Part shown: positions 17,779-49,072 of the stretch, one piece after another | Position numbering within the stretch: position 1 is the first letter of the stretch | How the letters are laid out: each line of letters opens with the position of its first letter | Origin: Rhizodiscina lignyota | Taxonomy: Eukaryota | Direction: 5' to 3' | NCBI GenBank assembly: GCA_010015805.1 | Contig: ML978127.1 | Location: 248,001 to 312,000 of the forward strand | DNA length: 64,000 nucleotides | The notes under the pieces: model-generated | Database searches by the model: none | Seen by the model: the letters and a program-made list of their open reading frames with translations, nothing else | Told to the model about the DNA's origin: nothing | Translations under genes and position numbers: made by a program

Positions 17779-18932
17779 TGTGAAAGTAGCACACGAAATC
17801 CTACCAAATTGGGTATCAAGTGAAATAGCGTTCCAAGAAGCGTTCAAAGAGCGAAGAAGAATTAGAAATTATAAGGTGGTGCACTCCGTACCTAAAGGGG
17901 AGAGTGTGCGAGAGTGTAAGAGGGAGAAAGTTGAAGGCTCGATTGGTGAGCCGACGTCAATCGATAGTATTTGACCGGGTTGTGCAGAGGGACAAGGATC
18001 AGCTGTAGAACCGCGTCGGCCAATTTTGTGTGAGCCGTGCACCCGCTGCAGGCGTTGGAGGCTCTGTGAGGCAACGCTTGGGGATTCGATGGAGTTTGTT
18101 GTGGGGATGCCGAAGATGTGCAGAGTGCAGCAGCGCGACCTCTGGACAGTCCGACGCGGCCCTTTTGTATGCGTGAAACGAGCGTAGCGAAATTACGAAT
18201 TCGGCAAGAGATTAGAAAAGCAAAGGAGAGGATTGACTTACTGACGATTGCGCTGAGGAACAGTGAAAGAGCGAGGCTTAGAAATTGAAGCTTCGCGGGA
18301 GCTGGAAGACGCGTGCTGGTGGCTTGACATTGAAGGAAATCATCCCTGTTGTGCGCGAATCGGTGGGCAGGAAAGCCGCGCTTCGCCGGCTGAGGGGAAC
18401 TCGCTGCAAAACCAGAGGCACATCTTTTTTGTACCAGCGCTGACCAATTGGCCCAATGCGGTACGGAAGTTGGGTCTTCGGCCATCCGATTGGTAGAGGT
18501 AGAGGTGAGAAGCCGTGCCGAATCATCTCATAATTCCGCTATCACCATCTCCTTCGGCACGGATACCGTACCAAGAGACTCACTGATCAATGCTGTTCAT
18601 GGCCACGGAACTAATTGTAGGAGATTTGCGAGGATAGGTTACTTAAAAAGATGCCACGGCGTGAATCACGCTCTGCTTTATTTCCAATATCACTACTCCA
18701 GCGATACGTTCACCTCTGACTTCGACGAGTAGAGATCTGTGGTCAACAGACAAAGACTCTCATCATCAGCCTTACCAATCGCCGATCAGAGATCTTATGA
18801 CCGACCGTCTGCAGCCTTTGCGAGGTGAATATCTGACAGGGGTGCTTTATCCCGTTTCCATCGTTCCTTTCGCCAAGACAGCAACCGAATCAACATCTTC
18901 AACTGCTCAAAGCATGTTCCAGCTTCCTTCCT

Positions 18933-20312: not shown

Positions 20313-21197
20313 TCATCTGTGCTGAGGGTGGCCAGCCATGCCCGCCTGTGCTGGTACTGGGTACGCACCCGCCTGCTGCTGTTGCTGTTGGAGGTAACTC
20401 TGGTACTGAAGCGCCTGCTCTGGCGTCATCCCGTAGTTGGGCGGCGCGATGCCACCGGAAGGCGGGACCATTCCTGCGCGATTGGATCCCACTCCACCTT
20501 GATGCGAGGGGTCTTCGGGAGACTCGACTCCGTTGTCGCCTTCAATTCCATTTTCATTCGAGGCGGGCTCGGGGGCGTTGAGGCAGGCCTGTTGATAATT
20601 CCTATCGTATCAGCATTGCCCTATGAAGGATGGATTTGTGTTAGAATGATTGGCGGAGTTGTACCTGGATCAGATTCTTGCCCTCGGGTTTCGTGACAAG
20701 AGGTTGGAGTTTGGGCGTGGTGAAGGTATAGACAAGACCAGTCTCCGACACGACCAAGAGGAGAACTTGCGTGCCAGTGAGGACAGAAAGCTCGTAGGCC
20801 TGAGGAAAACACGTTAGCGACTGCGCAAACACATGACGCGACGGCGGAAATGCGCGTTGCGATGCAGGTTGATGGATCGCAAGTGTCGCGTCGCGATGGC
20901 ATTGGCTGACCTTCTTCATAATACCGGCCTTTCGCTTGGAGAAGGTGATGTGGCGACGCGACTTGTCCTGGATGAACTTGATCTCGATCTTGCGGCGCTC
21001 GCGACCTGGATTGGGCGGGTTAGAAATTGATTGTTATCGTTTTGCCGTTTACGGAGCGGTCACTCACCGGGCTTGGAGTCTGAATCGTCATCGTCGTCGA
21101 CGCGTTGTCGCTTGCGGCTGTTGTCGAGCGAGGCAAGCGAGTCGTCATTGTCGGCACCCTGAGGTGTTTGTTGATCGCGCTCTGGCTGCTCACTCAT
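20313..21197 (-). CDS. MCM1: SRF-type MADS-box transcription factor
   Basis: Spliced: MSEQPERDQQ...DDDDSDSKP / GRERRKIEIKFIQDKSRRHITFSKRKAGIMKK / AYELSVLTGTQVLLLVVSETGLVYTFTTPKLQPLV / ACLNAPEP...poly-Q tail. Three introns. Confidence 0.96.
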
Positions 21198-23888: not shown

Positions 23889-24824
23889 ATGTCGAGCTCC
23901 AAGGTCACCCCGCGCGTCTTCATCATCCGCCATGGAGAGACGGAGTGGAGTCTTAACGGACGCCATACGGGCACGACGGAGCTCCCGCTGACCGCGAATG
24001 GAGAGAAGAGAATCATTGCGACTGGCAATGCCTTGGTGGGCAATGACAGGCTGATTGTTCCGAGGAATTTGGCGCACATGTGAGAGAGCCTCCGTCTCAT
24101 CTCTCTCCTTGATCTCAAGACGTCGACACCAATCTGTACTCGGCCGACTTTTTAAAAAACAACACTGACGAGACCAATAGCTACGTCTCTCCCAGACACC
24201 GTGCCCAACGCACCCTCGAGCTCCTGGGCCTCGGCTGCCGCGATAAGTTCCCCTGGCACGACGATCGCAAGCACGGCGACGAAGAGGTGCGCACAGATGC
24301 AAAGATCCAAGTGACGAGCGATATTCGAGAGTGGGATTACGGCGACTATGAGGGCCTCACATCCCCGCAGATCCGGCAGCAGCGTGCGGAGCGCGGCGAA
24401 GGACCATGGGACATATGGAGCGATGGCTGCCCGGGGGGCGAGAGCCCAGAGCAGATCACGGAAAGGTTGGATGGGCTAATTGCGGACTTGCGCAGAAAGT
24501 ATCATGAGGCGGCTATTGGGAGGCCTAGAGCGGAGGTGGGACCAAGCGACGTTTTGATCGTTGCGCATGGACATATCCTGAGGGCATTTGCGGCGAGGTG
24601 GGTCAATAAGAACATTGCGAGCAATCCGAGTTTGATCCTGGAGGCGGGTGGTGTGGGTACACTGAGGTGAGTCCAGCTTGGAAGGAGATGTTAGTATGGA
24701 GATTGGTGGAATAAAGGCTAACCCGCCGGACAGCTACGAGCACCACAACATATATGAGCCTGCCATATTACTCGGAGGCGCGTTCATGGTAGACGCAATC
24801 GAGCATGCGGAAGAGAAGAAATGA
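23889..24824 (+). CDS. Histidine phosphatase / phosphoglycerate mutase family, sedoheptulose-1,7-bisphosphatase-like
   Basis: Motifs [34 protein letters not shown] and GGVGTLSYEHHN. Introns 24080-24180 and 24667-24733. Confidence 0.92.
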
Positions 24825-24951: not shown

Positions 24952-25794
24952 TCAGAACCATCCCTTCCGTCCAAATTCCATCGGCTTCCCCTTCTGCGAA
25001 CGGTATTCTCCATTCCCCATATTCTCCTCACCAGCTTCGCGACGCCAGTGCCCTTCTCCACCGTGCTTGAAGCCCGGTTCACCCGCGCCATGCTCGGCCT
25101 TGAACTCTCTCGGGTAATGCACAACTGGGCCATGGCCCTTTTCAGCGTTGAACTGCCCGCCACTGTGCCCGAACGGATTATTCACAGGCTTCGGCTTAGC
25201 TTCCGGCTGCGCAGCACGAGGCCAATGGACACCAGAGCCCTTCTTCGATCCGGGAGGTCCCGCGTACGAGTGCCGGCCACTCTCGCCTTCCTCGCCGTGC
25301 TCATACGGCTCAGCATTGCGAGCCCAATGACCGGATCCTTTCCCTTGCTCGCCGCCAAAGCCGCCATGCTCCTTCTCCCTCTCCGCGCCGTTGCCAGATC
25401 CAAATGAACGCGCCCAACGGCCCGATCCCTTCCCGTGCTCGCCATGCTCCTGCGCCTCCTCCCCCTTTCCAAACTCTCCCTTGAGATAGTCCTTGGCATC
25501 CGTGGCGCGGCGCTGCATCCACTTGCCATACCCATTAGGAAAGCTGTCGGGAAATGCTGTTGGCTTCGGACCCCACTGCTTCTCCCACGTAGAAGGCCAT
25601 GCCTTATCTCTAGGCCACGACTTGGGGAAGCCAGTTGGTTTGGCACCCCAGGAAGAGGGCCAGTTGCTGGGATATTGCGAGGGCCAGGTGAGGTCGTTCT
25701 TCGAGTCCCCGCCGACGAATTTTTCGTAGTCGAATTTAGGCTCTGCGAGAGCGAGGGCCGCAGCGGCAAGGATGAAGAGAGAGTTGATGAACAT
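24952..25794 (-). CDS. Secreted Gly/His/Glu-rich repeat protein, putative kexin-processed peptide precursor
   Basis: Signal peptide MFINSLFILAAAALALA. Repeated units end in (H/R)-W/Y-x-R or RR. Intronless, 280 aa. Confidence 0.8.
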   Translation of the reverse strand: MFINSLFILAAAALALAEPKFDYEKFVGGDSKNDLTWPSQYPSNWPSSWGAKPTGFPKSWPRDKAWPSTWEKQWGPKPTAFPDSFPNGYGKWMQRRATDAKDYLKGEFGKGEEAQEHGEHGKGSGRWARSFGSGNGAEREKEHGGFGGEQGKGSGHWARNAEPYEHGEEGESGRHSYAGPPGSKKGSGVHWPRAAQPEAKPKPVNNPFGHSGGQFNAEKGHGPVVHYPREFKAEHGAGEPGFKHGGEGHWRREAGEENMGNGEYRSQKGKPMEFGRKGWF

Positions 25795-26834
25795 TTTTGG
25801 CAGTTTACGAGGATACGAAATGTGTTTACGAAGAAGAGTGTCAGGCCTCAGCTGGTTCGATGACGGGAACTTGAACTACACACCGTGTAGCGTCTGAAGA
25901 GAATAAAATAAGGGTGCAGGGCATTATCAACTTATGGTCGAAGAATTACGTTGCATTATAGCTGGGAAAACTGGCCCATCACATCGTTCATATTGTCCTC
26001 TGAGCATGAAAGACAACCGTGCAATAGCGAAGCCACAACCGCAGGGTCGGATGACATGAGCGAGAACGCTACTTATTTCACAAAAGAGTGTCAAACGGTT
26101 TGGGGAGCGCCTCTCCAAGATCAGAGATGAACTGGACAGTGTGTCCATATGACTGGATTTCTTTGTGCTTAATGCTGCCGAATCTGGCTGCCAAGCCGGT
26201 GAAGATGGTTGTGGCTGACGGGGCAGCTTCGTGTCATCTCAGCTTGGGAGAACGCAGTCGTTCTCTTTCAGGGAAGACTTCTAAAATTGAAACAGTGATA
26301 GGGAATCGTGAATTGTGTGTTTGATGTACTAAAAGTCCTAAATGCATTGGCTTGAACTGCTCTCGATGACGGGGGCCTCGGCGAAGACATTAAACAAAGA
26401 AACCACTCGATGCCGTGCAGATCTTATGTACACTTCCCATCAAGAGCCGCAAACAGCGGTTCAAGGTATAATTTATGCTCTTTCAGAAATAAGGTGTGAA
26501 TAAAGAGCGTAACATGTAGTAGCGCCAAGTGAGTGCAAGTGAAATTGAAGGTGGAGCTAAGCGTCTTGCCTACCTGGGGCGACGAAATCGTTGAACTCGA
26601 TTAGCTGAATAGCTCTTTTAGGAGCGAGTTTTGTTCATCAACGCGAACGAGAGCATCTCTGAAAGGTCAATTAAAGATACACCAAACAGCCTTCATCTAA
26701 AACGCGTGGCTTTACTGTGTATAATCTGAATTGATTGATGAGGGTATACATACTCGCGAGTCGACATTGTGAAGCCACGATCCAACCTTTTTATCATGCC
26801 CTTGCACACACATCCGGCAGCAATGACACTTATC

Positions 26835-29475
26835 TCATGCGTGAACGAAAGTCTCTCCATCCCAACCAAACTTGCGACCCAGCCTCCGTCCTATTCTCCT
26901 TGCGACCCAGAGCGACAGTTTTGCCTCTGGGTGCGGCTCATGAAAGTTGATGCTCCGATGAGCGCCATCCAAAACGCCTTCAAAGTGCCATACGGAACCG
27001 CACAGCTTCTCCGGGGTGAGACCGGCAGAATCCATAGCGTGGAGGAACTCACGCCAGGTCACCTCCTTGACTTGAGCAGCACTGCCGGCTTCAGAGAACA
27101 GGGTGCGGAAGACTTTAACGGCGCGCTGCGTGACCTAGATCTTCTCCTTTGGCTCAGAGTGCTGCATAGGTGCTACTCTGGCCTCCTCAGGATCGTTGTC
27201 GTCGGTCTCAGGAGCAGTGTATACAGTCTTCTGCGTCTTCTTTTTCTTTCTGCTACCTTCAGCGGCTGCTCTCTTGTCGAACTTTTCTGGTTCCACCTCT
27301 AGAACAAGAGATTGGAGAGCCTTGGTACATTCCATAGTCTGAAAAGCAGTAGGTTTTGACGCTTTGCTTTCCCAAGGAGGTGTTCGGTCCAAGGTCCTGT
27401 GACTAATACCAAGAAATTCATGAAAGGACATCTTGCTATTGATGCGAATATTTTTATCGACATAACGCCAGAACTTGTCGAGCTTGCTTTCAGCCATTCG
27501 CATTGCTGCAGTAGTTTCTTCGGTGCGCCGTTCTTCCGAAGGATAAAAGAAGCGGCCTTCAGAAGGAGTTCCGAATCGATAAAGGTCGTCCAGTGTATCA
27601 ACCTTTGCGTTAATGACCAGTATCTCGTTCATACCGTAGTCCGAGACCGCGTTATTTCCCTAATTGCTTGCAAAGTTGTAATTTGTCCAGATCCTGGCAT
27701 GGAAGAGCTCAAGCTGTCTCTGGCATTCCACGACAGTGCCAAGTTCCGCAAGGCAATCCGCTAGCCAGGAAGAAATCCGAGACTTCTGTAGAGGATTCCG
27801 AAGTATTCTGTCCATCTCATCGAGCACAATTGGCAAACCGATGTGGAAACTCGTCTCACCGCTCACTAATAGTAACGCAAGCCATGTGAGATGATCTTCA
27901 GTGTCGAACCCGAGCTTTACATCAACTCCCCCCATAGTACTCTTGAGGCCCGCAAAAGCTGTCTTCGTGTAGAGGTTCTTGTGGATACCCGGCCAGCATT
28001 TGATCCCACATTCGACATTATTCAAGGTGCAGTTTTTGACAACCTCAAGCACGCAATAGACCCTGTGCAGGGCCATTGCAAAATCCGGAAGTGGTTCGAG
28101 ATCTTGACCAGCAACGTCCGCTTGTGCTTCGTGCAATACAGCAAGGTTGTGCAACTCCTTTTCCAGCCTCGCCCAGAACACATGAGTCGTATACATGTTG
28201 GATACAAATCTGTTGATGACTCGGTTCCAAGACTGACTAATTTCCGAGTCTTTGACGTGAGCACGAACGGATTCGTCGTCAATGACCAATGCGAAAGCCG
28301 GCCAGTGAGCTCGTTCATCATTAACCTGTTCTTCAAAGTACTGCGGGTCCTCACGCAATGCCCAGATATGGTCTTCAGCCTCCTCTCGTTTACACGTCGC
28401 TAAGCACTTAAGACGCTGGAAGTCGGGCTTGCTAGGTACTCGATATGGTGCTTCTGCAATGATGGTGGCCAGAGAGAGATACTCGGAGTCAGCAGGAGCA
28501 GTTGCAGCGATGCGCTCAGGCTCCAGCGGGATTGTTATGCTATCATCGATGAGGTTGTCCAACGGCTGATCCCACAGAAGAACTTGGCAGCACTTGACCA
28601 GAAATTGAAGAAGCCTCTCTTGAAGTTCCATAATAAAAAAGCCTTTGTCCGGAGCCCACCCGTTCTGTTTGCGCTGAGCATGTACATCGGTAGCTTTCAA
28701 CACGATCGTGCCATAGCTGCCCGGTATTACTTGGTCTTCGATCAGCATCACGTATTCGAAAAGTGGACAGGTTTGTTTCGATCCACGTCTTGTGATAAGA
28801 TGCTTCACAATTCCGATACGGGAAGACTCGAGGTCTTGAAGGGCAAAACAATGAGGCAGATGGCGGCTGCGGGAGTTTAGAAGAAGTAAGAACGTCTTCC
28901 CACCTACCAAATCCTCAATATTCATGTATGTCCACATAAAATCTTCCCGCTTCGTTGATCTTTCCCTGAGGGCCCGCATGTCAGGACGGTGCTCAAGGTG
29001 CATGTCCGGCCACAGCTTGAGGAGCATCTCTTTTCGCTGGGTCTTCGATTTCTTCAACCACCTCGAACGTATCGTATCTTCATGCCTCTGCAATATCTTG
29101 TTGAGAGACATCCAAGAGTTGAATATATTCGTGGCCATCTTTCGTGCAGTGAGCATGGCACTCTCGACATCTCTTCGTGTTATCAATTCCTCAGTCTCAT
29201 CAGGAAAAGACTCATGTGTGTATCGTAGCTCGAATCTCTTCGGGAAACTTCCTCCTGTCATCGCTACAAGATCCGCTGTGACCTCTGTGGTAGACCAGGT
29301 AGATGGATCTTCCACGCGGAATAGCTGGAGATCGTCGTGGGTTGTCTGGTGCTTGGCCGCAAACAGCTTCCTAATATCCAGTGTTACTCAAGTTTTGATA
29401 CTGTACAGAATATTCTCTTATAACTCACGCCTTCAGCCTCAAGTATATCAATTCCTCCATGTTCATGGACTCCAT
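26835..29475 (-). pseudogene. Large fungal hypothetical-family gene with a C-terminal FHEPHP (HicA-like) domain, interrupted by two in-frame TAG codons
   Basis: ATG 29475, then an intron at about 29428-29371. ORFs 27660-29315, 27135-27632 and 26835-27062 are all in one frame, separated only by TAG at 27660-27662 and 27135-27137. Family-like motifs: LLLLNSRSRHLPHCFA, EAPYRVP, AEDHIWALREDP and WREFLHAM...SINFHEPHP. Confidence 0.75.
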
Positions 29476-30667: not shown

Positions 30668-31453
30668 TTACAGCGCAGCCGCAATTCCTACCAAGCCCAC
30701 AGCACCCGCCGCTAATGCGCCCATTACGTTCGCCGTTGCCATAGCTGCGATACCTGTGCTTGAGGAGCTGGCCGCCGCAGCAGTGGAGGCAGAAGAAGAG
30801 CCGGAGGCGCTGCTGGAGGATGATGAGCCGCTTGAACCGGTCTGGCCGGCCTCGGTCGTATTGGCGTTGTTCTTGGTGTTGAGGTACGAGATTGAGACGC
30901 CAGTTGAGTTTTGGCAGTTCGCCTTGAAGTCGGCAGAGGAGAGAGGTGTATCGGTGAGGGTAATGTCCGCGCACTGGTTAAGTTAGATCCATTGTCTCTG
31001 GTTATAGATACCATTTTGTATGGTTGAATCGGAGCTTGATAGAAAGGGACGCAAACATACAGCGTAAAGACCCCCACTAGGGTCTCCATTCGTCACCACC
31101 TGGATCGTCGCGTTCGTACCCGCCTTCGCGTTGGGGATCCTAATGTCGCCCAAGCAGAAGAGCTGCGGGCCTCGCTCGAATAGCGTTGGAACAAGCACGG
31201 TGTGGTAGTCGGCGCCGGAGGGGTTATTGCCGAAGGCGATTAGAACTTCCACATTCGTCTCCGTGTGCTCCATGTTCAGCTGGACGGGCCCGCCGTTGAT
31301 GGGGAACTCGGTACGGTTGCTCTCCACATCGTTGAAGCCACCGCATGGATATTGTACAATCGTGTCCTCGCTGAAGCCACGGGAGTGAGGATAGTGCATT
31401 TGGAAGTGGGCAGCTGCGAGAGCCGGGAAGAGGAATGTGGTTATGCTGTACAT
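30668..31453 (-). CDS. GPI-anchored His-brace copper-binding protein, BIM1/X325 (LPMO-like) family
   Basis: A 15-aa signal peptide exposes an N-terminal His (HFQMHYPHSRGF...PCGG...RTEFP). Second His in LNMEH, then GDPSGGLYA/CADI across intron 31060-30974, a Ser-rich stalk and a hydrophobic GPI-signal tail. About 232 aa. Confidence 0.85.
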
Positions 31454-32716
31454 GTTGGGCAGGGTGGTATGACTATCACCACTGAATGTCGAGAGATGGA
31501 GGGCAATTGAGGTAAGAAGTGTATGAAAGTTGTTGCAGCTCAGAGGACAGTAAATATTAAAATGGCAAGTCTCAATTGCAGATTGTGTACACAAAAATCG
31601 CGATGGAAAGCGTGACCAAGACGATGTGAGGTCTGGTGCGAGAAAAGTTGATAGAGCTCTAGGGCGAGGGGAGTAGCTAGCGGACGGACAATACGCTCTT
31701 ACCAGAGAGGAAAATAGCTCTTTTAAAGGAATGCGGGGGTTTCCAGCGCTGTTGGACAAGCTTCCAATTTCCGTATCGCGTGTGGTGCAAATCGGCGCGG
31801 AGTGTGCTGATGAGGTGCATTCCAGCCATGTTCTAGGACAAGCTTTCTGTAAACTGCATCCACGCGCCTCACCCATGGATCAAGGGACCCTCTCCGTCAT
31901 ACCACAGTCTCAGCATCCTGCAAGTGGCGAGAAGCTTTCAATTAGCATGCTGGAACCTGCATATGTTGCCGGCTAGCGGCTCCGAAGAGCGAGGATAGCG
32001 TGCAAGTGACAAACGCCGCGGGATATACAGCTGCACCATCAAAGGCAAAGGTTCGGTTATTTTGGGTGATGAGCTTGTTTCATTCACGGCCCAACGAGCG
32101 TTTCGCCATCTAGGTGTCGCCGTAGATCAAGCCCGCCGACGCCTGGGCCCCCAGCACGTGTGGCAGGCATCGTCCAGCCTCCATGAACAGGCGGTCTGGC
32201 AGCAGTCTGCTCCGTGCTGTCGGCGGCTGGAAACATGGTGAGCTGCATGATTTGGTTACATGATTCAGGCTGAGGTGAGGTTGCTGGACGATTAAGAGTG
32301 ATGTTAATGGTGGTGGATGCTGAACGAGAGCAATTGAGCAAGTTTTCTGCGTTAGCGTCTCCATATTGAAAGCTAGCGCCGATTGGACGGCATGAGTGCT
32401 TTTCATCAATCAAGGCTGACATTATTCCCGATGAGGTGATCGCATGATCAATTCATAAATTTGGAGCTGAACGAATAATTATTTTCGTCGATGAATGGAT
32501 ATTATTGATTATGAGATTGGGAGAAACTGTTCAGATTAAACTACCGCGGGAGGTGAGTTGTTGGGGAGTATCAAGCCGAGTTACGACTATGCAGCACTAT
32601 GTAGGCCACTGCTCTCCAAGCGTATGTAGTCTACTTTCCAGTCTCATTCTCCCAATGCGAACAATGGGTGTCATATATCGTGAATCCGAAAAAATTCCAG
32701 CCATCTCATCTCTACT

Positions 32717-33378
32717 TTAATGATGCTCCTCCATGTGTACATTAAACCTTCCCACCAAGAGCTCTCCAATAAACGCGCCAGCGAGTACCGAACCGAAATA
32801 GCCAACATTAAGAGTCATGACAGCCAGCATCCTGTTGAAAATCAGTATACGTGAATGTGTCGTATGGAGCAGATAACTTACAGTAAATAGCCGACTCCAA
32901 GAATAACCATAACAAGAAATGAGCGTGGCAGATCTACGCTAAATCTCCACGGCATCGTCGCTGGTCTCGGCCTGTATGCAATCTTCACTTCCTCCTCAAT
33001 CCCATTTGCCGAGAGGACTGCTATCTTCGAATCCTGGCTTGCCCGGATGCGCTCTGACTCTGGGGTCTTGTCTGCAACGACGACATATCTTCTATTGATC
33101 GCGGCGGCCATCCAACGGTTCTCCAGTACTTGCTTGAATGCAAACAGACACCGGTAGAGGATAGCGAGGACGATAAGGAAAATGCATGCGCCGGCATATC
33201 CACCTGTTGTTGAAGGGGTGAATTGCATCGAGTATAGTGATGTGCCAGTTCCGCCAAAAAAGGTCATGCTCATATCGGACGCGGCCATCGACATGCCGGA
33301 CATGTCCATGCTAGCTGTTGTTGTTGGCATGGACATGTCCATTGACGTTGTCGCTTGTGAGAGGGGTACGGTCGACAT
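32717..33378 (-). CDS. Ctr-family copper transporter
   Basis: Met-rich ectodomain (SMDMSM..MDMSGMSM..DMSMTF), TM1 YAGACIFLIVLA, MxxxM (MLAVM) after intron 32881-32832, GxxxG (GAFIG) and a C-terminal HMEEHH. About 203 aa. Confidence 0.93.
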
Positions 33379-34654
33379 GGTGGTGTGACTTGGATAAGAT
33401 GTGGATGAAATAGAGGATGGAAAGCTCCTGTCAAGTTGTCCAGCAACTCTGTGTCTTGAAGTATAGGGACTAAGAGTGGCGATTCTAAGTCGATATGTAT
33501 GTACGTGTTCGAGGATCGATTGTAGCGTAAGCTTCTAGGGCTCGAATTGGGTCGTGGAGATGTCAGAATGAGTAAGTTTGCTCTCGTAGTTATCGAAATA
33601 ATATCTCCCTCGTCGAAGCCGGCAGAAGGCCGTCCGGAACGTTCCCAGTCTTGAATCGCGGGTGATACTGGTCAAGGTTATGCGCAGCTGTAGTCGAGCC
33701 AAATGCGGCTGGTGGAAACGTTCTCCGCACCCAGAAGTGTGAAACGATGAAACGAAAAACTCCGATCACACGAAGGGCAAGCTATTTGAAAGGGCACGAT
33801 CGTCACTTCTTCCCTTGCTTTACCACAGCCCTAGCGGAAGAGAGTCTATGCTTGGGAGTCGACGGAAAGAACAGATGATAGTAGCTATTGGAATGCAGTC
33901 ATTCTGGGCACTTGGCTCCTAAAAAATAGAAATGGCCTACCCGGATGCGAGAATTGCGGCAAGAGCGGGCCATTATCAGAGGATTTGCGCAAGATACAGC
34001 TGGTTTACAAACTGCATTGTTGCCGTTGGGGTGGATAAGGAAAGGCAGGTGTGACTTCGGGCCTTTTGTTTTTGAGGGCGATTGAGCTGGTTTTCATTGG
34101 CTGCGAGTCGGCACAATGCATCGCTCTGCAGTGGCCACATAAAACAGACAAGGCCCAGAAACAAACGCCAAATGATAAACTAGTGTCTGACGACGGCAAA
34201 GCCCATGCGCAGAATTGCTATAGACCGCTTCCTTCGAACGTGCTCCGGGACATGCTCCCGGTGAGACTGAGCCAAGTACCTTGACAAATTGCTCGATTCC
34301 AGTGACCATCTTCTCTCTTTTCTTCGCGAATTCCAGGAATTGACATCAAAGGCTGGAACCCCAAGACCGGATCGTCGACGTTCCGCCTGGAATTTTGCGC
34401 GTTTGCTGTATCGGCACATCAGACACAACCAAAGGTCTGTCGCAACTCCTCACTTCTTGGCCCGGAAGCTCTTTGGCGTTACCTTTCTTTCACCCCATAC
34501 TGCGAAGCTGTATACATTCCGTATTCGAATAGAATGAATTGAGTGATCGGGAGAATCTCCGTGGATATATACGCGAGTTCTGGCCATATCTCTACATTCT
34601 TTTATCCCGCACATTCCCGGCGCTATCGACCTTGGTCATTAAACTGCAGTCAAG
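33379..34654. promoter_or_regulatory. Bidirectional Ctr/FRE promoter with Mac1-type CuRE-like elements
   Basis: TTTGCGCA at 33984-33991 and TTTGCGCG at 34394-34401 match the yeast TTTGC(T/G)C(A/G) consensus. Near matches TTTGCTCT at 33577-33584 and ATTGCTCG at 34288-34295. Confidence 0.5.
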
Positions 34655-36894
34655 ATGGATATGCCAATGGAGGGAATGAATATGGGCGACATGCCCATGG
34701 GAGACGGTATTCCGTCTCTCGCTTCTTTCCAGAAACACTACTGGGTCGTTGTTGGAACAGCCATCGCTGTTGCAACCGTCGCCAACATTCTGAGTTATGT
34801 CCTGTATAGGCAAAGGTATGTGCTCTCTGTGCCAACGAGATCTCAGACGTAAAGCTGACGAGAAGACGCAGATTATCAGCAGCTTCCAGAGGAATACTAC
34901 AACCGGCGAAGCCCAAATCACTTTTCTCTTCAGGGCATGCAACATTAACAGCACTTATCCGCGAATTTTCCAATGCCGCGCTGCCGGCTCTTTCATTTCG
35001 AGGATGGTTCCTGCACATGCCACTGGCCGGAAAGGTATCGCTAGTCATCGCAAATGCCGTCACCTTGCTTGTAATGTGCTTCTACGGTTGGGACTCCTTG
35101 GCCTCCCTCAACTATGAGGATATTGGATACCGGACCGGATTTGTTACCATCATGCAACTTCCACTAATTTTCTTGCTTGCCGGCAAGAATAATATTGTCG
35201 GTTTCCTCACCGGCTTCAGCTACGAGAAGCTTAACTGGCTGCACCGATGGACAGCACGATGCATGTGGCTCACGGCGACCATCCACTTCGGATACTGGCT
35301 TGCTGACTGGTGGCCGTATGGCGACTTTGTGAGCGTGAAAATAAAGACCGACCCGATTACCTGGAGAGGTCTTGTCGCCTGGTGTATTCTTGGATGGATC
35401 AACTTGAGCTCGTCAACACCCATCCGACGATGGGGCCATGAGTTCTTTGTGCTCCAGCATATCGTCTCATTCGCTGTCATGGTTGGCTTCATCTATTGGC
35501 ACGTCCCATCTGAGAACCATGTCTGGATCTGGATTGTAACCGCATTCTTCTGGTTTGATCGCGTCGTCCGAGGAGCGAATGTTCTGTATCACAACTTGTC
35601 CATTTTCCATCCCAAGCAACGAAAGCAGGGAAATATGAGCATCTGGGCTTGCCATGCAGAGTTTACTCCGTTGCCGCACAACACCACCCGCATCACCATT
35701 CACAACCCTCCGATTTCATGGAAAGCTGGACAGCATATGTTCCTTTCTTGTCACTCTCTTGTTCCTCTGCAAAGCCATCCATTCACTGCCGCTTCAATTC
35801 CGGAAGACGGCAAGCTCGAGTTCCTTGTACAGGCGCAGAAAGGCGCAACAAGGCGCTTCTTCCGCCACGCAGAAAAGCTCGCTCAGCTGCCAACATCTGC
35901 GAATGGTACCCGAGTCTCTACCACACGTGCCGTCGCCGTCGAGGGGCCTTATGGACGGATGCGACCCTTGCGACAGTTCGACAGCGTCGTACTATTTGCG
36001 GGGAGTACAGGTGCAACATTCGCTATCCCACTACTCCGCGACATCGTTGCGGCATGGAACTCTTCTACTGAAGGCTACCCAAAAGCAGGAGGCATCTTTG
36101 CAGTACCAAACGTAGCAGTGACTCGACGCATTCGTTTCGTATGGTGCGTCAAGTCGCGCGGCCAACTCGGCTGGTTCGCATCGCAGCTCGCCACGGTGAT
36201 CGAAGACGTCGAGGCTCTAAAGAGGGACGGTGTAGACGTCGAAGTTGAAATGAGCGTTTACTGCACATGCGACGAGAAATTTACTGAAGAGCATAATTCA
36301 TTGCTGTCACAATGGCGGTCATCCACTGATGCTGCCGCGCAACGGAACGGCAAAGTTGAAATTGTGCAAAACTTCGACGAAAAGGCAGCGCTTAAAGGGC
36401 GCGAAGCAACCTCGGCGGTTCGCGAGGTGGACTCCGGTTCAGAATCAGATTTAAAACTGGAAGAGAAAAGACAGGGATGTGGTCCCGATGGGCAATGCTG
36501 TTGTAAAGCCACCGTCGACGAGGAAGCCATCACTACTGATGGCGAGAAGAACCGCGATAACTTCGTCTGCACATGCTGTGCTGGTGACGAAACGGTCACA
36601 TCTGCGCGAGAAGTCGACGGCGATTCGACGCGAAGCGGCTCCACCGTCAGTGCTGTGCCCAAGTTTCTGTGCCATCCACACATCGGGCTGTTCAGCGGGC
36701 GTCCACAGACGAGGAATATCATGCGCAAGAGCCTTGAACAGGCGCTGGGTGAGAGTGCGGTGGTGGTGTGCGGGCCGAGAGGGCTAATTGAGGATGTGCG
36801 GAGAAATTACGTGGCGGTGTGCGATGAGAGAGCAGTGTGTAAAGGCACGGGGGCGATGGGTGTGTGGTTCCATGCTGAAGGGTTTGGATATTAG
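34655..36894 (+). CDS. Ferric/cupric reductase (FRE family metalloreductase)
   Basis: Heme-ligand His residues (LHRW..TIH; LQH..YWH), FAD motif QSHPFT, VEGPYG, LFAGSTGAT, VVVCGP and terminal HAEGFGY. Exon 1 MDMPMEGMNM...; intron 34816-34871. About 727 aa. Confidence 0.94.
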
Positions 36895-37500: not shown

Positions 37501-38661
37501 ATGGCTAGAAAAACAAGAACGAAGCGAGGACGACTCCAACGAGCCGATAAAAGTGTTGCCCATGGCTCATCTCTTGGGGTAGCCAGTGCGGACAGGCCGT
37601 AATCCTAGTCATCCTTGAGTTGAACAGCGATTGATCTGATCTAACTGATTCCTACGGCTAGACTTGGACTGCTCGATCTCCCCACTGAAATCCGTGCCGA
37701 CATCTATGCTCAGCAATTTGAATCAGTCGATTTCGCGCTCCATGATTACTGGAGTCTGCCAAAACCCATACGAGTCCTCGTCGATGAGACTCAGTGGGAC
37801 AATGAGACCCCGTCAGAGGATGAAGCTCAGTCGGACGACGATGATGAGGATGAGGATGAGGATGAGGACCACAGAACATTTTTGATACACCACATGTCAA
37901 CATTCTCCCCGCTGTTCCTTGTGAATAAGCAAGCACATGGGGAGGCCAGGCACGCAAAGTCTCTCACGCTTGGCCAGATTTCCGGCACAATTGCCCGAAA
38001 TTTGTGGAACTGGACAGTAACACCGACGATAGACCCTGCCTTTGCTTCAATATGCGAAGCAGGACGGCTCGTATTTGATACCACCGTGGAGGGGGTCATG
38101 CGTTTCATGGAGAAAAAAGAGTCGACAGTTTGTCGGTATATCCGGTCAATTGTCATTACCCATAGAGTGCTTATGGGTGATGATGGCGACTGCCGAGACG
38201 CATGGTCGAAATCTCCGGAGGAAGCTGACGAGGTCTATACGCCGTTCACGGAAAGTTTGCTTTCGAATATGCCAATGGTTCGGGATGTTGTTATCTTTAT
38301 ACCAATGGCAGGTTCATCGATGTCAGATTGGTACTGCAGTTATGCCCCTACAGAGATGTGTTCGCTGCTCGAAAACGACAGACTTGACACCGTGCGGTTC
38401 TTATATGGAAAACCGAATGTTGATCCTGGCAACTCTTGCAGCTATTTTTCGAGGGCCCTTCACCCTCCACTTCCAGCGGAGAGAACTCGAGGTTTGGATC
38501 GGGACACACTTCTAGCGCTTTGGGATGAGCATGACGAGCAGCCACCGAGATTTCACGCCACACTTGAGAGTGCGCAATATGAGTGGGACTTGGGACGCTC
38601 ATTGAAGACGGACTGGGAGAACGGTGTCAGCGTTTCCACACTCCGGCGACATGCTAGTTGA
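37501..38661 (+). CDS. F-box-like hypothetical protein with an acidic tract
   Basis: ATG 37501 (MARKTRTKRGR), intron 37599-37661 (gtaatc..ctaac..tag), then LLDLPTEIRADIY and a DDDDEDEDEDED tract. In frame with ORF 37882-38661. Confidence 0.7.
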
Positions 38662-39349
38662 CAATCTGCGTTGCGGTACTCAACGACAGAATATCATGTG
38701 CTGGCTCGAGGAAATGAAAAGGAATTATGGCAAAGCCGGATCAGCATGTAGCTTGCGCAGCAGCTTGTCAATATCAGCACGCAATCATGCCGCAGTCAAA
38801 CCGAGGCAATGCATAGTCCATCGCTTCGCATAAGTGTACGGGACCTGATGTGAAGCGTAACTGTACGATACTAGTATGAGCACTTTTGACAGATAACCGA
38901 GTCCAGTCCTTGCACTATGCTATCTATTTGCAAACCTGTGTAGTACATTTTCTTTCGGCAATGTCTCCCTCCATAGTCATCGTACACGATGATTCGTCCG
39001 ACAGCTTCTAGAAATGATCGTCGAGAAGGATTCGTCGCGATCCTTGCTACTAAGACCGATGAGGAAAGTATGGGCACAGGTTAGGATTAGCGCATGTGGT
39101 GGGAGTTCTGTCATGCTTGGGTATGATTGGATTGATATATTGATCCCACAAGATCATGGGCTTTATGTCCATTACATACTCGGCAACATGACTAAAGGCC
39201 GTAATCTCCATACTCATGATTCTATAAAGGCAGCATTTGACTTGGACTGCAACTTGAATTCTTGATCTAAAACTCTCGAGCTCAAGAGATCTAAACGCTC
39301 GCCAACCCGATCTGTCAGCGAAGGCTTTTGCAGAAATCTCAGCACGATC

Positions 39350-40472
39350 ATGGCATCAAGCCAAAAAGCCAAGATGAAAGTCGTTTTCGGTGCAATGTCT
39401 TTTGGCCAACCGAGCCAGGTCACTGAGCCCGAACCGGAAAATCCAATCTTCAACATGTTCCAAAGCAGAATTAGGGTTAATGATGTCGAGACGGGAAATT
39501 CAATCCTGGATGTCCTCCAGAAACATGGGTACGCCGCCAACATATGCCTCCTCAATGACGGTATGACTGATCCAGGTAGATACAACGAGATTGATACAGC
39601 ACGCCTTTACGGCAATGGAACCTCGGAGTCTCTACTAGGCGAATTGAGATGTCAGGAGCGAGGTCTGGTTGTCAGCACAAAGTATTTGCCGATGGCCCAT
39701 TCGATCCCCAGGACAGTCCTTGCTGAAGGCTGGAGTATGTCTACTTGTAAACGTCAAACTGGTCAAAATACTGACGCATGTACAAGACTTTGATCAACGT
39801 TACACTGCCGATATGATTCGCCGAACTATTCAAAAGTCCCTGAGAGAGCTCAAAATGCGTGGCATCCATATTTATTATAATGGTCCGGACCCTACGGTTC
39901 CTCTGACCGAAAGCCTTCCGGCTATCGATGCAGTCCATCGGGAAGGGCTTTTTGTCCAATTCGGCCTCACCAGGGTCCCTGCATGGAGAGTCGCCCAGAT
40001 CTATGATGCGTGCGATCGCTGGGGCTGGGTCAAGCCAACAGTCTACCAAGGCATGTACAACTTCCTGCACCGAGGCGTGGAGCCGGAACTGCTTCCTTGT
40101 TTGCGGCAATACGGCATCCAGTTCTACGCATTCAACCCTATGGCAGGGGGATTTCTCGCCGCCAGTGATCCGCAGGGGGCAAGCAAGGCGAGCTACATAA
40201 ACAATGCTTACGCTGCTGCTGTGGAACTGCTTAATCCGGTCATTGAGAAGCATGGCTTGACGCTTCGGGAGTGTGCTCTGAGATGGCTGGCGCATCACAG
40301 CTTGCTTGCAGCGGACAAAGGCGACGCAATTTTACTAGGCGCAAGTCGTGCGGAGCACTTGGAGAGTAATCTTTTGGATCTAGAGAAAGGTCCCTTGCCA
40401 AAAGAGATTGTTGAGTCGTTAGATCGGGCGTGGGAACAAGTTAAGGGACTAACTCCCAAGTACTTCTTTTGA
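39350..40472 (+). CDS. Aldo-keto reductase, AKR7 (aflatoxin aldehyde reductase)-like
   Basis: Motifs VVFGAMSFG, IDTARLYGNGTSE, VSTK, GWVKPTVYQGMYN, AFNPMAGG, ALRWLAHHS and DLEKGPLP. Introns 39529-39579 and 39735-39786. Confidence 0.85.
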
Positions 40473-43969: not shown

Positions 43970-44855
43970 TTAAGAATATACGTCATCGTCACTCTTCTTC
44001 GGCTCTAGTTTTTGAGTCATGTGTGATCCTTCCTTCTTGAAGCCACATTGGCCGTAGAAAGATTCATTTTGCTCTGCGCATTGAACTGTCGTCTATTCTA
44101 CTGTCAGCTTTGCTCATAAGGGAGCTACGAACCAGGATTTTCTTACTCTGTAACAGCCAACTTCCCTGGCGACGTGGAGGACGGCCTCGAGTATTCGAAG
44201 GCCCATCTTCTTGCCTTTCTGATCGCGAGATACAGCCACGTCTTCGAAGTGACCGACGAGGCCCATATTGTGCGTGCTGTATGGAACCTTAGCCAAATTT
44301 TCCAATTCTTCTTTGCAATGTCTCTTACAATTTCCGCTCGACCAGGAGCGTGCCCACGGCAACACATCGTTCGCCTTTGTCGCAGATGACTACTGTGTAG
44401 TACGTCCCATTTCCCATATCATGCAGCCATTCGCACCTCTCATCCCATACGGATTCGCTGACCCATCCCACCTTCTCCTGTACTCTGAGCACATCCAAGT
44501 ATCCCTTGTGGTAGTCCGACTTGCACAGGGGTCGTACTGAGTAACCTTCTGGCAAGCTGAACTCCGATGCACACTTCGCAATATAGCCTTCCAGCAGCTG
44601 AGGAGGCCACAGCGGCTCATCTGAATCAAGAGGCTCGCGAATGCCTTCGGGGATCGCTTGGAGCGCCTGCTCGTTGGCAATGCCTACATCGAGGCCAGGT
44701 GAGAAAAGGGCTCGGGCGAATTTCGACTCATTGAGCTTGGCAGAGTCGAAACGTGAAGTCGGTGGAGGGGATGTGTTTGGGTCGCGGGCGAAGATGGTAT
44801 CAGGGTTGGTGATGGCGCGTACGATGCGCTGGCGCGTTGAGAGTGAGCGCTGCAT
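43970..44855 (-). CDS. GNAT acetyltransferase, GNA1 (glucosamine-6-phosphate N-acetyltransferase)-like
   Basis: LPEGYSVRPLCKSDYHKGYLDVLRV, GTLLVERK / FTHNMGLVGHFEDVAV..QKGKKMG / EVGCYR..NESFYGQCGF. Two introns; start codon uncertain. Confidence 0.82.
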
Positions 44856-46629
44856 GCTGTGGATGATGTTGCAATGGGTATCTGAGAAACTCGATCGCGC
44901 TGAAGACTGCGGTGGAAAGACGTTGAGAAGAAAGATATGCAATTGATCTGCGGAGCGAGGACTGTCTGGAGGTCCTTGAAGCTGCCACTACCCGTTGCCC
45001 AGAACGCCGGGCGTGGAAAAGGGACTAGAGCGGAGGCGTCCCTGGAGCTCGAGCGCGGGAGAGCGACACGACGGTGGATGATCACAGAAATGCAATAAGT
45101 AGATCTTGGGAAGAGAAGCGAATAGAATAGCGTGATGAATCTTGGTGGAGTTACGTGTCAAGGACAATACATTGCTCTGCGCCGGCAGCACATGCTCGCG
45201 CGGCGATGACAGCACCAGCCGCAATTCCCGCAGTCCGGAGAGCGTTTCAGAAACATATTCAGCACCGCCATGGGTCCAGCCGGCGAATTGTTTGCGCTTG
45301 TCGATTGGCCTTCAACGGGTTGGAGTCGGGCTTGCACTCGGGGAGCCGTGGCTGATCATTGCAAAGAGCAAGGGCGCTCGCTCCGCGGGAGGGCAAAGGA
45401 GGCCATTCGCTGCTTATTCAGGGGTCTGCCAACCCGCGCTTGGCATGGGCAACTTTAATTTGAGGTCGCCGAAGAGCCTCAAGACGACTGAAGTGCGTGT
45501 GTTGTCTGCCAGCCGCCACTCTGAGCTGCGATCGAAGGCGGCCTCGTATTAATACCCGCCCGCCTCGAAGGATTCGCTGTCTGAAGGATTGCAGTGAAAA
45601 GTGAGCAGTCGACGTGCAGATGCAATTTTCGTGACGCGCCCGGGGTGGAATGGCGCCAATGCATATTTCAGGAACAGGGCTGAAGCCACGGCACAGATCA
45701 CTGCCCCCTGCCCTGCTGCCCCAAATCGGGCGCCGTGGGACGTTGGAAGCATGGTCTCGGCATCTCCAAGGCATCGCGTCGGGTATTGAAGACCGTGGAT
45801 GAAAAGAGCATTTCCTGAAGACCGTCAGCTTACTGGACTTTATATTTCGGCAGGGTCGAGTCCTTCTGAAAGTCCGCAGCTCAGATTTTGGCTTTGGAAC
45901 TGGAATCTCGCAAAGGCAGATACGGTGCCCAATTTCGTCTCGGCGTCACTGCAATTTCATATGCATCTCTCTCCTCACGTCGCCCTATTTCGTCTCGAGT
46001 CGAGTCCGCCTCGTGATCCCTGATATCGATCTTCGCTACACTAGCCTCTTGCCGCCCAACTTTCCACCCTTCATGTTAGCTTCCGCCTCCGCCAAAGACC
46101 AAGAAAAGGGTCTCTGGCTTTTCTTCCTTTCCACCCCCTTTGACCTTCCTTGACTCAGCGATTCTTCTCTCTCAGCACGTGGCGCTCTGTTGTCATAGCA
46201 TCGTCCTGTGCAGTTCACTCGCCTTGGCATGCTTAATTCCTCCTCGACAGACACCATTCGCTCCCTTAGACGCCATTTAGGGCTTGCCATGACTAGTCGT
46301 GGAACAAGCAACCAAGGAGCTGTGGCTGCTATAGAGGTCGTGTTGCGAGCGATTCGTGGGCCCTATGTTCAATGGCGCAAACTCAGTGCTTCAGCTAGGG
46401 CACTCTACAATACGAGAATTCCGGTGAAGAATTCTTGTGGACGAACATAAATATGGGGAGCATCGCAGATAACGTCTCAGTCTCTCCTCTAAATCTATTG
46501 TGTGATATTCGCCACCGTCAGTCCCTACTAACTTTTCGTTCTTGACGCTCTTTTGAATATCATTCCTGCAAACTTCCGCACATCACAAATTCAACGAGAC
46601 CGAAGAAAAGAGATATTAAAATTAACAAC

Positions 46630-47426: not shown

Positions 47427-49072
47427 TTATGCATGGTTCTCACCCAAGACAGCGCTCTTTGCATTCGAACCCCCTCTTGATTTCATGGAAGGGGTTCCAC
47501 CTATCGCCCCACGCCCCTGAGCCCTTGCGGCCTGCTGCACCAACCTCATCGCCCTTCTCGGCACCCAGACTCTGCTCCCGAGTACCATCGACATCGTCAG
47601 CAGTGCTAATGCACCTGCCTGATGGCTCGCCGCCAACCATGTTGGCACGAGATAGATGAGTGTACTGATACCCAATATGACCTGCAGCCACGTGAAATGC
47701 ACCACGCCCAATACGCCCCTCCCACCTCTTGGAATCCTCGCCAACGCAGTTCTAGTGCGCGGAGAAAAGCGCGACCACAGCCACAGCGCGTGTACGGCAG
47801 TGAATGTGGTCACTGCAAGCACCCTATGATCCAGCTGTACGAGTGACGGGTTGGCGGTCGCGTTGCGCCAGATCAGGTCCGAGCGGTCCTCTTTGCGAGA
47901 ATAGAAGATGTCGAAGAGTTCTGCTTTGGGAGGCGTGAGGCCAAGACCCATGTAAGGGAATTCGTTGTAGATGAGTCCGGCGTCTAAGCCAGCGACTAAG
48001 GCACCAGACATCGCTGTTGTAAATATCAGTGCGGCGAGCAAGCCGGTAGCTATGCGGAATGGGCGAAAGGCTGGAGATGCGAGATTGTTGAGCTGTTCAA
48101 GTGCGGTGACGGTTGGCATGGAAAGGAAGCGTCGCTCGCGCAAGATAGAGAGGCCCGTGTAGAGCATAGAGCAGTATACCACAAACGCAGCTCCGAGATG
48201 GATCGTCAAGCGGTATTGGCTCACTCTAGGCACCTCGCCCTTCGCGAACAGGTCATCCTTCAGTCCGCTCTTGACCATCCACCATCCAATGAACCCTTGG
48301 AGTCCAATGAGCCCACTTATGCCCACCAAGCTCGCAGCCACCGGTGCAGAGACCCGTCGGCGGGCAATGAAGTAGATGGTTGGGAGCAAAAAGGTTATGC
48401 CAACCACACGACCCCATACCCTGTGCGTCCATTCCATCCAATATATTTGTTTGAAAGCAGCCAGGTCCATGTTTGAATTAAGTTGCTTGAATTCGGGCGA
48501 GAGACGATATTTGGCGAATTCGGCTTCCCAGTCAGTTTCTGAGACTGGCGGGAAGGAGCCTGTTACGGGACGCCATTCAGTTATGCTGAGGCTATAGGTA
48601 CTGTTAGTAATTGCTGGAATGCCAATTGGACGATTTGAGTTGGGATTTGGGTGGGCGGTCTAGAAGTGATATTGAGGGAGATATACCCAGACTCGGTCAA
48701 TCTTGTGAGACCGCCAAAAACTACAATGCCAAATACACTTGCAGCGCTTCCAAGCAACCAGTACGCTACCGATTTATTGGAGCTATGAGGGAAGAATGTC
48801 CTTCTCGCACTCTGCCCACTCGTGCTTCCGCGTTGCGCCGCTTCTGCTTCCAGGAGGCCAATCGTGCCATTGAGAGGATTCAGTGTCGTTGCCTTGCCAT
48901 TGGACAGTGCTCTCGAATTCTGCGTGAAGAAGTTGGCGCTCTGATTCCTGGTTCTACCACCGAAAGGAGCTTGTCGTATGCCGTTCAACAGAGGATGTGA
49001 AGACCGGATGGCTCCGATATTACCATGGGCCTGACAGGTGAAAAATTGTCGACATAAGCGCGCGGAGGCCAT
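47427..49072 (-). CDS. COX15: Heme A synthase
   Basis: Arg-rich mitochondrial presequence; GGLTRLTESG/LSITEWRPVTG across intron 48686-48592; EWTHRVWGR, VSQYRLTIH, GLDAGLIYNEFP, QLDHR and ASHQAG. Confidence 0.96.

Follow-up and report, generated by a model that had tools for sequence, protein, structure and literature searches.

In Aspergillus fumigatus, genes for a glycosylphosphatidylinositol (GPI) protein (Afu6g02800), a copper transporter (Afu6g02810, ctrA2) and a metalloreductase (Afu6g02820) were reported in 2008 to be adjacent and co-induced, with higher expression in the presence of normal neutrophils than of chronic granulomatous disease (CGD) neutrophils, and the triple deletion was sensitive to menadione and normal on low iron (PMC2481287). 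Head-to-head pairs of a Ctr copper transporter gene and a FRE metalloreductase gene with Mac1 sites in the shared promoter are likewise on record, including ctrA-freC of Aspergillus nidulans, found in 110 of 127 fungi (PMC7705104), and ctr3-fre9 and ctr1b-fre12 of Fusarium oxysporum (PMC11563359). The surface protein Cbi1/Bim1 of Cryptococcus neoformans is reported to interact and work with Ctr1, not with Ctr4 (PMC9258870; 2026 proteome preprint), mutagenesis of its ligands is reported to affect copper import (PMC7529816), and how it assists Ctr1 is described as unclear (PMC9258870). In Pseudogymnoascus destructans, the BIM1-like proteins BLP2 and BLP3, two CTRs and three FREs are induced by the copper chelator bathocuproine disulfonate (BCS; PMC12113139; 2026 proteome preprint), and this CTR/BLP/MRed set is modelled as one pathway (PMC12113139). 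Here, we describe a gene trio in a window of 64,000 nucleotides (nt) from Rhizodiscina lignyota (contig ML978127.1 of assembly GCA_010015805.1, positions 248,001 to 312,000; "the window" means this whole stretch), encoding a BIM1-like/X325 protein of 232 amino acids (aa), a methionine-rich Ctr of 203 aa and a divergently transcribed FRE of 727 aa, counted from the first ATG. With a probability of roughly 0.8, we read the trio as a Mac1-regulated, high-affinity module for copper capture, reduction and import.

The three gene types match those of the A. fumigatus locus in kind and adjacency, and Afu6g02800-20 is very likely the same locus, because the peptides encoded by three Afu6g02800 oligonucleotides are found, one after another, at residues 162, 169 and 176 of an A. 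felis BIM1-like protein, a fit that among 245 proteins is shared only by its two cluster mates, and because AFUA_6G02800 is listed as the match of P. destructans VC83_07867 (PMC5810475), named BLP3 (PMC12113139). This orthology draws on oligonucleotides and a third-party match rather than on A. fumigatus sequences; for Afu6g02810, one of three oligonucleotides maps convincingly, at residue 96, and the window Ctr is a candidate orthologue of ctrA2 or yeast Ctr1. The 2008 paper differs in that, in the text available, the family of the GPI protein was not recognised, iron and oxidants but not low copper were assayed and no synteny was claimed (PMC2481287). An earlier note on this DNA, made from its letters alone, was not aware of a description of the BIM1/X325 gene as part of such a cluster; the adjacency itself was already in print, although the GPI protein had not been recognised as belonging to a copper-binding family. 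Each gene family, the pathway idea and the A. fumigatus locus were known; the assignment of the GPI gene to the BIM1-like family, how widely the linkage is kept and the promoter element we did not find in print. In a literature survey that included PMC6354809 and covered the available parts of main texts, but neither supplements nor two 2020 Nature Chemical Biology papers on X325 and Bim1, clustering of a BIM1-like gene with Ctr and FRE was not found to be stated by any paper.

The note was right that divergent Ctr-FRE pairs are known, and the documented ctrA-freC/ctr3-fre9 pair is probably paralogous to the window pair, matching instead a second pair of this genome on contig C2. In contrast to the window trio, no BIM1-like third gene is described for ctrA-freC, ctr3-fre9 or ctr1b-fre12 in the parts of those papers considered, which for F. 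oxysporum leave Bim1 unmentioned, and ctrA-freC and ctr3-fre9 are of the ctrC/Ctr3 type (PMC7705104, PMC11563359). FOXG_07771 was rejected as a BIM1-like third gene in F. oxysporum, being annotated as a SAM-domain protein, and FOXG_02393, which lies beside fre10, carries the annotation "uncharacterized" (PMC11563359). In P. destructans, BLP2 (VC83_03095) and a FRE (VC83_03096) carry consecutive tags and are both up in BCS, an adjacency that passes without remark in the text available (PMC12113139).

Conservation of the gene trio

The trio is a real conserved module in many filamentous ascomycetes. Metagenome contigs were scanned with patterns that pick out one orthologous group, and the best 80 of 88 confirmed loci formed 51 groups at 90% DNA identity. 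The layout FRE(-) Ctr(+) BIM(+) was present in 14 of the 18 groups with at least 4.5 kb of upstream sequence (the other 33 of the 51 were too short for this count and were omitted), and, of the 25 groups whose upstream sequence reached 2.7 kb or more, 20 had the Ctr. Among 22 long loci, Ctr was found in 17, NAC-beta in 7 and any other flanking ORF (open reading frame) family in at most 5. The order and orientation of the Ctr were fixed, save for one convergent case (L047), which groups with Geoglossum and in which the BIM1-like and Ctr genes stand tail to tail, while the side and distance of NAC varied. In the five groups without Ctr, which form two small clades of the tree, NAC-beta lies directly upstream in all; it recurs beside the BIM1-like gene in L013, L025, L040, L064 and L084, and five public models from named species (P0006, P0010, P0021, P0023, P0052) run the two genes together. 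In the present genome, NAC is located on the same contig as the trio, far away.

In a tree of 53 rows, in which many deep branches are weak and from which "short" loci and own paralogues were omitted, the Ctr-linked loci group with proteins of Aspergillus/Penicillium, Cadophora/Phialocephala, Heterodermia, Geoglossum and Dothideomycetes, neighbours that we take to represent Dothideomycetes, Eurotiomycetes, Leotiomycetes, lichens and Geoglossum. Fifteen other species, presumably all Dothideomycetes, are represented by name among the homologues listed for the BIM1-like protein as well as for FRE, and in 12 of them the tags or accessions of the two genes lie within 3 of each other. These are Bogoriella, Bathelium and Verruconis; Patellaria, Coniosporium apollinis, Diplodia corticola, Massariosphaeria and Westerdykella, which had been preselected on a contig match; and Cryomyces minteri, Aureobasidium subglaciale, A. 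pullulans and Delitschia, from a set that took in non-matching pairs too. For the remaining three, Lophiotrema, Clohesyomyces and Byssothecium, the pairing goes by a contig match. Cryomyces minteri was at first discordant, and has the trio as a merged model beside FRE. Two of the homologues are annotation-merged Ctr+BIM gene models; natural Ctr-BIM or BIM-NAC fusion proteins were rejected as merged models, because P0025 joins at the Ctr intron without His1 and P0278 has the BIM signal peptide internally.

The earlier note had described the three genes as consecutive, with no interloper, and had made their adjacency in relatives a point to be checked; both have held up. The spacers of 1263 and 1276 nt contain just five ATG-initiated ORFs of 71-112 codons, and those of at least 100 aa found no match in the 80 related loci compared. 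Given that the genome of 33.4 Mb holds 6 PF20238 matches and 4 Ctr loci, the chance of one PF20238 gene lying within about 3 kb of a Ctr is, by simple arithmetic, about 0.004.

The BIM1-like protein

A profile hidden Markov model search, proposed in the earlier note for its BIM1/X325 identification, gave a match to PF20238 (Pfam; E 1.2e-29, 104 bits against a cut-off of 27), and at E values up to 0.1 Pfam returned no other family and no auxiliary activity (AA) family. The AlphaFold2 model, built from a 99-row alignment (mean predicted local distance difference test score, pLDDT, 78.8; domain mostly >90), has as its top structural match among 48,161 representative chains LaX325 (PDB 6IBH; Z 19.2), with residues 16-156 of the model superposed on chain residues 1-150, residue 16 on residue 1, at a root-mean-square deviation of 1.8 Å over 136 residues; Foldseek also matches the model to X325 (E 8.7e-11). 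Lytic polysaccharide monooxygenases (LPMOs) rank below, with AA15, AA10, AA13, AA9 and AA11 at Z 11.6 to 8.2. According to the model, the protein has the X325 fold and is not closest to any LPMO AA family.

His16 and His63 align to His1 and His49 of LaX325. His16, His63 and Asp124 are conserved in 98, 96 and 98 of the 99 rows, respectively, and the poorly conserved His20, His23 and His84 were dropped as candidate ligands. Asp124 lies on a glycine-rich loop and is likely the fourth copper ligand, a grading held at likely because it is offset by 1-2 positions from the LaX325 Asp in the alignment and because side-chain geometry is unreadable from the model; the X325 fold that the earlier note had put up for checking is borne out by the model. 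The note had also described a GPI-anchored protein exposing His1. His16 directly follows Ala-Ala-Ala, the segment GDPSGGLYACAD spans the intron, and a Ser/Ala-rich linker precedes hydrophobic residues 218-232 (the last 15), so that the residues are as described and the protein is, judging from its sequence, a predicted surface protein with a putative cleavage site and anchor. In comparison with Cbi1/Bim1 and LaX325, the protein shares the PF20238 family, the X325 fold, the N-terminal His, the Asp on a glycine-rich loop and the GPI-type tail; it differs from LaX325 in sequence, with an identity of only about 31%, and from both in its linkage, since clustering of these with Ctr or FRE is not stated in the parts of the literature available.

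Promoter elements

The top de novo 7-mer in the Ctr-to-BIM spacers was TTGCTCA (21 seen, 3.7 expected). Its core TGCTCA occurred in 20 of 23 BIM1-like promoters (11.5 expected) and in 16 of 19 Ctr/FRE spacers (8.7 expected), as opposed to 7 of 21 downstream controls (12.8 expected), with expectations from 30 dinucleotide shuffles and the window counted as one of the 23 and one of the 19. Relative to flanking non-ORF DNA, TGCTCA was about 2 times and CTTGCTCA more than 10 times as dense. A Mac1-type matrix trained on 66 sites, all from loci other than the window, ranks the element at 32333-32345 in the BIM1-like promoter first in the 64 kb, and the identical 13-mer turns up again on contig C2, between the Ctr and FRE genes of the second pair. 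Near-match sites in the window Ctr/FRE spacer lie at 33567-33579, 33984-33996 and 34081-34093 (ranks 6, 13 and 9). TGCTCA is also the core of the Mac1 consensus obtained by chromatin immunoprecipitation in F. oxysporum (PMC11563359). A GCTG-type element (Cuf1/CuSE-like) was considered and not enriched, TGCTGA being found in 6 of 23 promoters with 11.8 expected.

As a separate observation, GCCAAG is 2-3 times denser in both spacers (L013-L092) than in flanking DNA, with window copies at 33911, 34271 and 34456; we take this word to resemble a PacC site, a likeness that would connect the module with alkaline pH.

Transporter and reductase

The Ctr called in the earlier note, with its Mets motifs, MxxxM and GxxxG, is recognised by PF04145 (E 9.6e-23) and has 10 Met within its first 45 residues, M167xxxM171 and G184xxxG188. 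Each of the 37 cluster Ctrs scores higher with the window Ctr than with the paralogue on C2, which fits the reported work of Cbi1 with Ctr1 and not Ctr4. The C2 Ctr, which we presume is probably of the ctrC/Ctr3 type, aligns to the window Ctr with only 23% identity over 56 residues.

The FRE lies head-to-head with the Ctr, as had been noted, on the plus strand with the Ctr on the minus strand, and carries PF01794, PF08022 and PF08030. His171, His185, His243 and His257 (P0135 numbering), which we take to be the heme ligands, are invariant in 87 rows. The Met-rich N-terminus (34655-34740) has at least 3 Met in 42 of the 46 rows that include an N-terminus, and a Cys-rich insert, CG..CCC...CxC, in the NADPH domain (~36470-36600) is kept in 67 of the 87. 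These two stretches are possible sites of Cu(I) hand-off and copper sensing, and context together with the Met-rich N-terminus would fit Cu(II), rather than Fe(III), as the substrate.

When the BIM1-like domain was modelled together with FRE residues 15-300 and two hemes, the predicted complex had a score of 0.37, compared with 0.04 for the best control, with at least 92% of contacts agreeing between runs and partner pLDDT of at least 86. In calibration, 51 of 78 solved complexes reached the mark used, as did 2 of 108 mismatched pairs; of the same 78, just 5 passed at 0.60 or under, a range that contained all 4 mismatches that passed among 180. On eukaryotes, it was reached by 39 of 65 solved complexes and 2 of 126 unrelated pairs. 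Of 44 blind neighbours, 7 also passed. The prediction ran without alignments, its calibration set was ligand-free, and there was no interface output, so the membrane side is not given. On these figures, direct docking of the BIM1-like protein on FRE is weakly suggested.

Proposed mechanism and alternative explanations

Under copper shortage, Mac1 would bind the AAACNTGCTCA-type sites seen in both spacers and switch on the three genes. Joint induction of the trio by copper starvation, the absence of which the earlier note had named as a refuting outcome, has indirect support from the conserved Mac1-type sites and from published results on homologues. The secreted, GPI-anchored BIM1-like protein would then bind surface Cu(II) through His16, His63 and Asp124, by analogy with LaX325 and Cbi1, and, going by what is known of their families, FRE would draw on cytosolic NADPH to turn Cu(II) into Cu(I), which the Met-rich Ctr would import. 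The BIM1-like protein is most likely a non-catalytic collector that gives up its copper close to FRE and Ctr, and we infer that transfer runs from it to them. Ascorbate scarcely reduces Cu-Bim1, whereas H2O2 makes it release its copper (PMC7529816), and FRE reduction of bound copper is therefore not the default; copper release followed by reduction appears at least as likely as reduction of the bound ion. A tighter arrangement would be a single surface machine, in which the BIM1-like protein docks on FRE, the Met-rich N-terminus of FRE takes Cu(I) and passes it to Ctr without copper ever being freed, and the Cys-rich insert senses cytosolic copper. We consider this extension doubtful; if true, such channelling of copper between the His brace and the pore would fill in the release step that Cbi1/Bim1 has so far been missing.

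Several observations weigh against the copper uptake module. The trio is missing from 4 of the 18 groups, and the locus counts are not independent events because the loci are related to each other. NAC-beta stays linked in 7 of the 22 long loci without a known copper role, and linkage can therefore outlast the absence of shared function. None of the other five PF20238 matches in the genome lies beside a Ctr or FRE match, and Mac1-type sites stand upstream of several of these unclustered paralogues (L002, the C20 pair and L005). Of the 19 Ctr/FRE spacers, 3 are without an exact TGCTCA, that of the window among them, and the core is kept in the BIM1-like promoters of all five groups without Ctr and FRE. 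Among published systems, ctrA2 is down in high copper and Afu6g02820 is up, AceA-dependently (PMC8425704); a match to ctrA2 is reported to be absent from A. nidulans (PMC7705104); in F. oxysporum, ctr1a stands outside any cluster, and the gene that joins ctr3 and fre9 as third member of their cluster has a SAM-domain annotation (PMC11563359); and in P. destructans, the CTR promoters are reported to be without the yeast Mac1 consensus (PMC11509074) and the tags of CTR1a, CTR1b and BLP3 lie far apart, a further difference from the window (PMC12113139).

The retention of the core where Ctr and FRE are missing, and the sites upstream of unclustered paralogues, would be expected if the BIM1-like gene were a copper-starvation gene for wall copper buffering, wall integrity or oxidative-stress defence, clustered only for shared Mac1 control and taking no part in an uptake relay. 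This account, which we regard as unlikely, also draws on wall and melanin phenotypes of Cbi1 that are independent of Ctr1 (PMC9258870), on the shedding of copper by Cbi1 on H2O2 with scarcely any reduction by ascorbate (PMC7529816) and on the menadione sensitivity of the A. fumigatus triple deletion (PMC2481287). Yet the Cbi1 ligand mutants are reported to matter for copper import (PMC7529816), menadione sensitivity would also fit a poor copper supply to Cu/Zn superoxide dismutase, and tight linkage is not needed for shared regulation alone. Inherited microsynteny, with the BIM1-like gene beside an old Ctr/FRE pair by ancestry and without shared function, would account for the persistence of NAC-beta, for its merging with the BIM1-like model in five named species and for the breaking of the trio in the four groups and, by tags, in P. 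destructans. It is nonetheless very improbable: Ctr is kept in 17 of the 22 long loci in all but fixed order and orientation, whereas the side and distance of NAC vary, the BIM promoter has a conserved Mac1-type site of its own, and BIM1-like homologues are induced by copper starvation (PMC12113139). The LPMO-like fold, finally, could suggest a true LPMO-type enzyme with FRE as its electron donor and Ctr as its copper supply, a reading to which we give hardly any credence, as X325 lies far above all LPMOs in the structural comparison, the open site is occupied in X325 by the conserved Asp, and Bim1 neither cleaved cellulose nor underwent redox cycling with ascorbate (PMC10952591, PMC7529816). 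A copper-consuming enzyme would not be expected under a copper-starvation promoter either.

For the copper uptake module, the linkage and the conserved Mac1-type site amount to genome-context evidence that one ascomycete orthologous group serves copper uptake. The linkage sets the window BIM1-like group apart from the five unclustered paralogues in this genome and singles out one particular reductase as a candidate partner, and the existing A. fumigatus triple mutant can be re-read as a deletion of the trio module. A copper role is also suggested for proteins named "expression library immunization antigen 1", as NCBI names some orthologues (P0079, P0099); we take this to be the name of a fungal vaccine antigen.

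Gene models and genomic surroundings

Features of the trio and its paralogues are listed in Table 1. Splice sites were inferred from the sequence and agree with the NCBI models P0004 (BIM1-like) and P0135 (FRE), and the BIM1-like protein is identical to the NCBI model listed under Rhizodiscina lignyota.

Table 1 Features of the trio in the window, and related loci elsewhere in the genome (contig:position).
Feature	Position	Strand	Basis or remark
BIM1-like exon 2: last strand, Cys132/Cys151, Ser/Ala linker, GPI-type hydrophobic tail, stop	30668..30973	-	
BIM1-like intron, 87 nt, GT-AG, inferred	30974..31060	-	spliced product equals NCBI model P0004
BIM1-like exon 1: signal peptide, His16 (mature His1), His63, Asp124	31061..31453	-	translation, Pfam, alignments
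Mac1-type element AAACTTGCTCAAT, ~880 nt upstream of BIM1-like ATG	32333..32345	-	matrix rank 1 in 64 kb; core enriched in relatives
Ctr exon 2: MxxxM, GxxxG, stop	32717..32831	-	
Ctr intron, 50 nt	32832-32881	-	
Ctr exon 1: Met-rich ectodomain, first helices	32882..33378	-	Pfam, translation
Divergent Ctr/FRE promoter	33379..34654	.	without exact TGCTCA; 3 near-match sites, 3 GCCAAG words
FRE exon 1: Met-rich N-terminus, first helix	34655..34815	+	
FRE intron, 56 nt	34816-34871	+	
FRE exon 2: heme, FAD, NADPH domains, Cys-rich insert	34872..36894	+	
PF20238 matches, head-to-head pair (L003, L004)	C20:71573-73097		
PF20238 match (L002)	C16:27583		
PF20238 match (L005)	C7:1992052		
PF20238 match (L006)	C1:1601434		
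Second divergent Ctr/FRE pair (L007)	C2:1435987-1438355		
Ctr locus (L011)	C10:493045		
Ctr locus (L009)	C5:574053-574655		

Among the PF20238 paralogues, L002 has Asn where His1 aligns, and the plus-strand gene of the C20 pair keeps an N-terminal His. The Ctr on C10 has a very Met-rich N-terminus, as in the window Ctr.

The trio is flanked by genes at 27660-29387 (-), 37645-38661 (+) and 39266-40472 (+), two without a Pfam match and one an aldo/keto reductase, none of which is kept beside the trio in the related loci. An ORF at 16489-17868 (-), 13 kb from the trio, matches the flanks of five locus groups and is what is left of a more extended synteny. Judging the ORF list by eye, we take 20641-21033 (-) to encode a MADS-box protein, 24113-24670 (+) a phosphoglycerate-mutase-like protein, 24952-25875 (-) a secreted Gly/Glu/His-rich repeat protein, 44325-44987 (-) an acetyltransferase-like protein and 47427-48659 (-) a heme A synthase-like protein.

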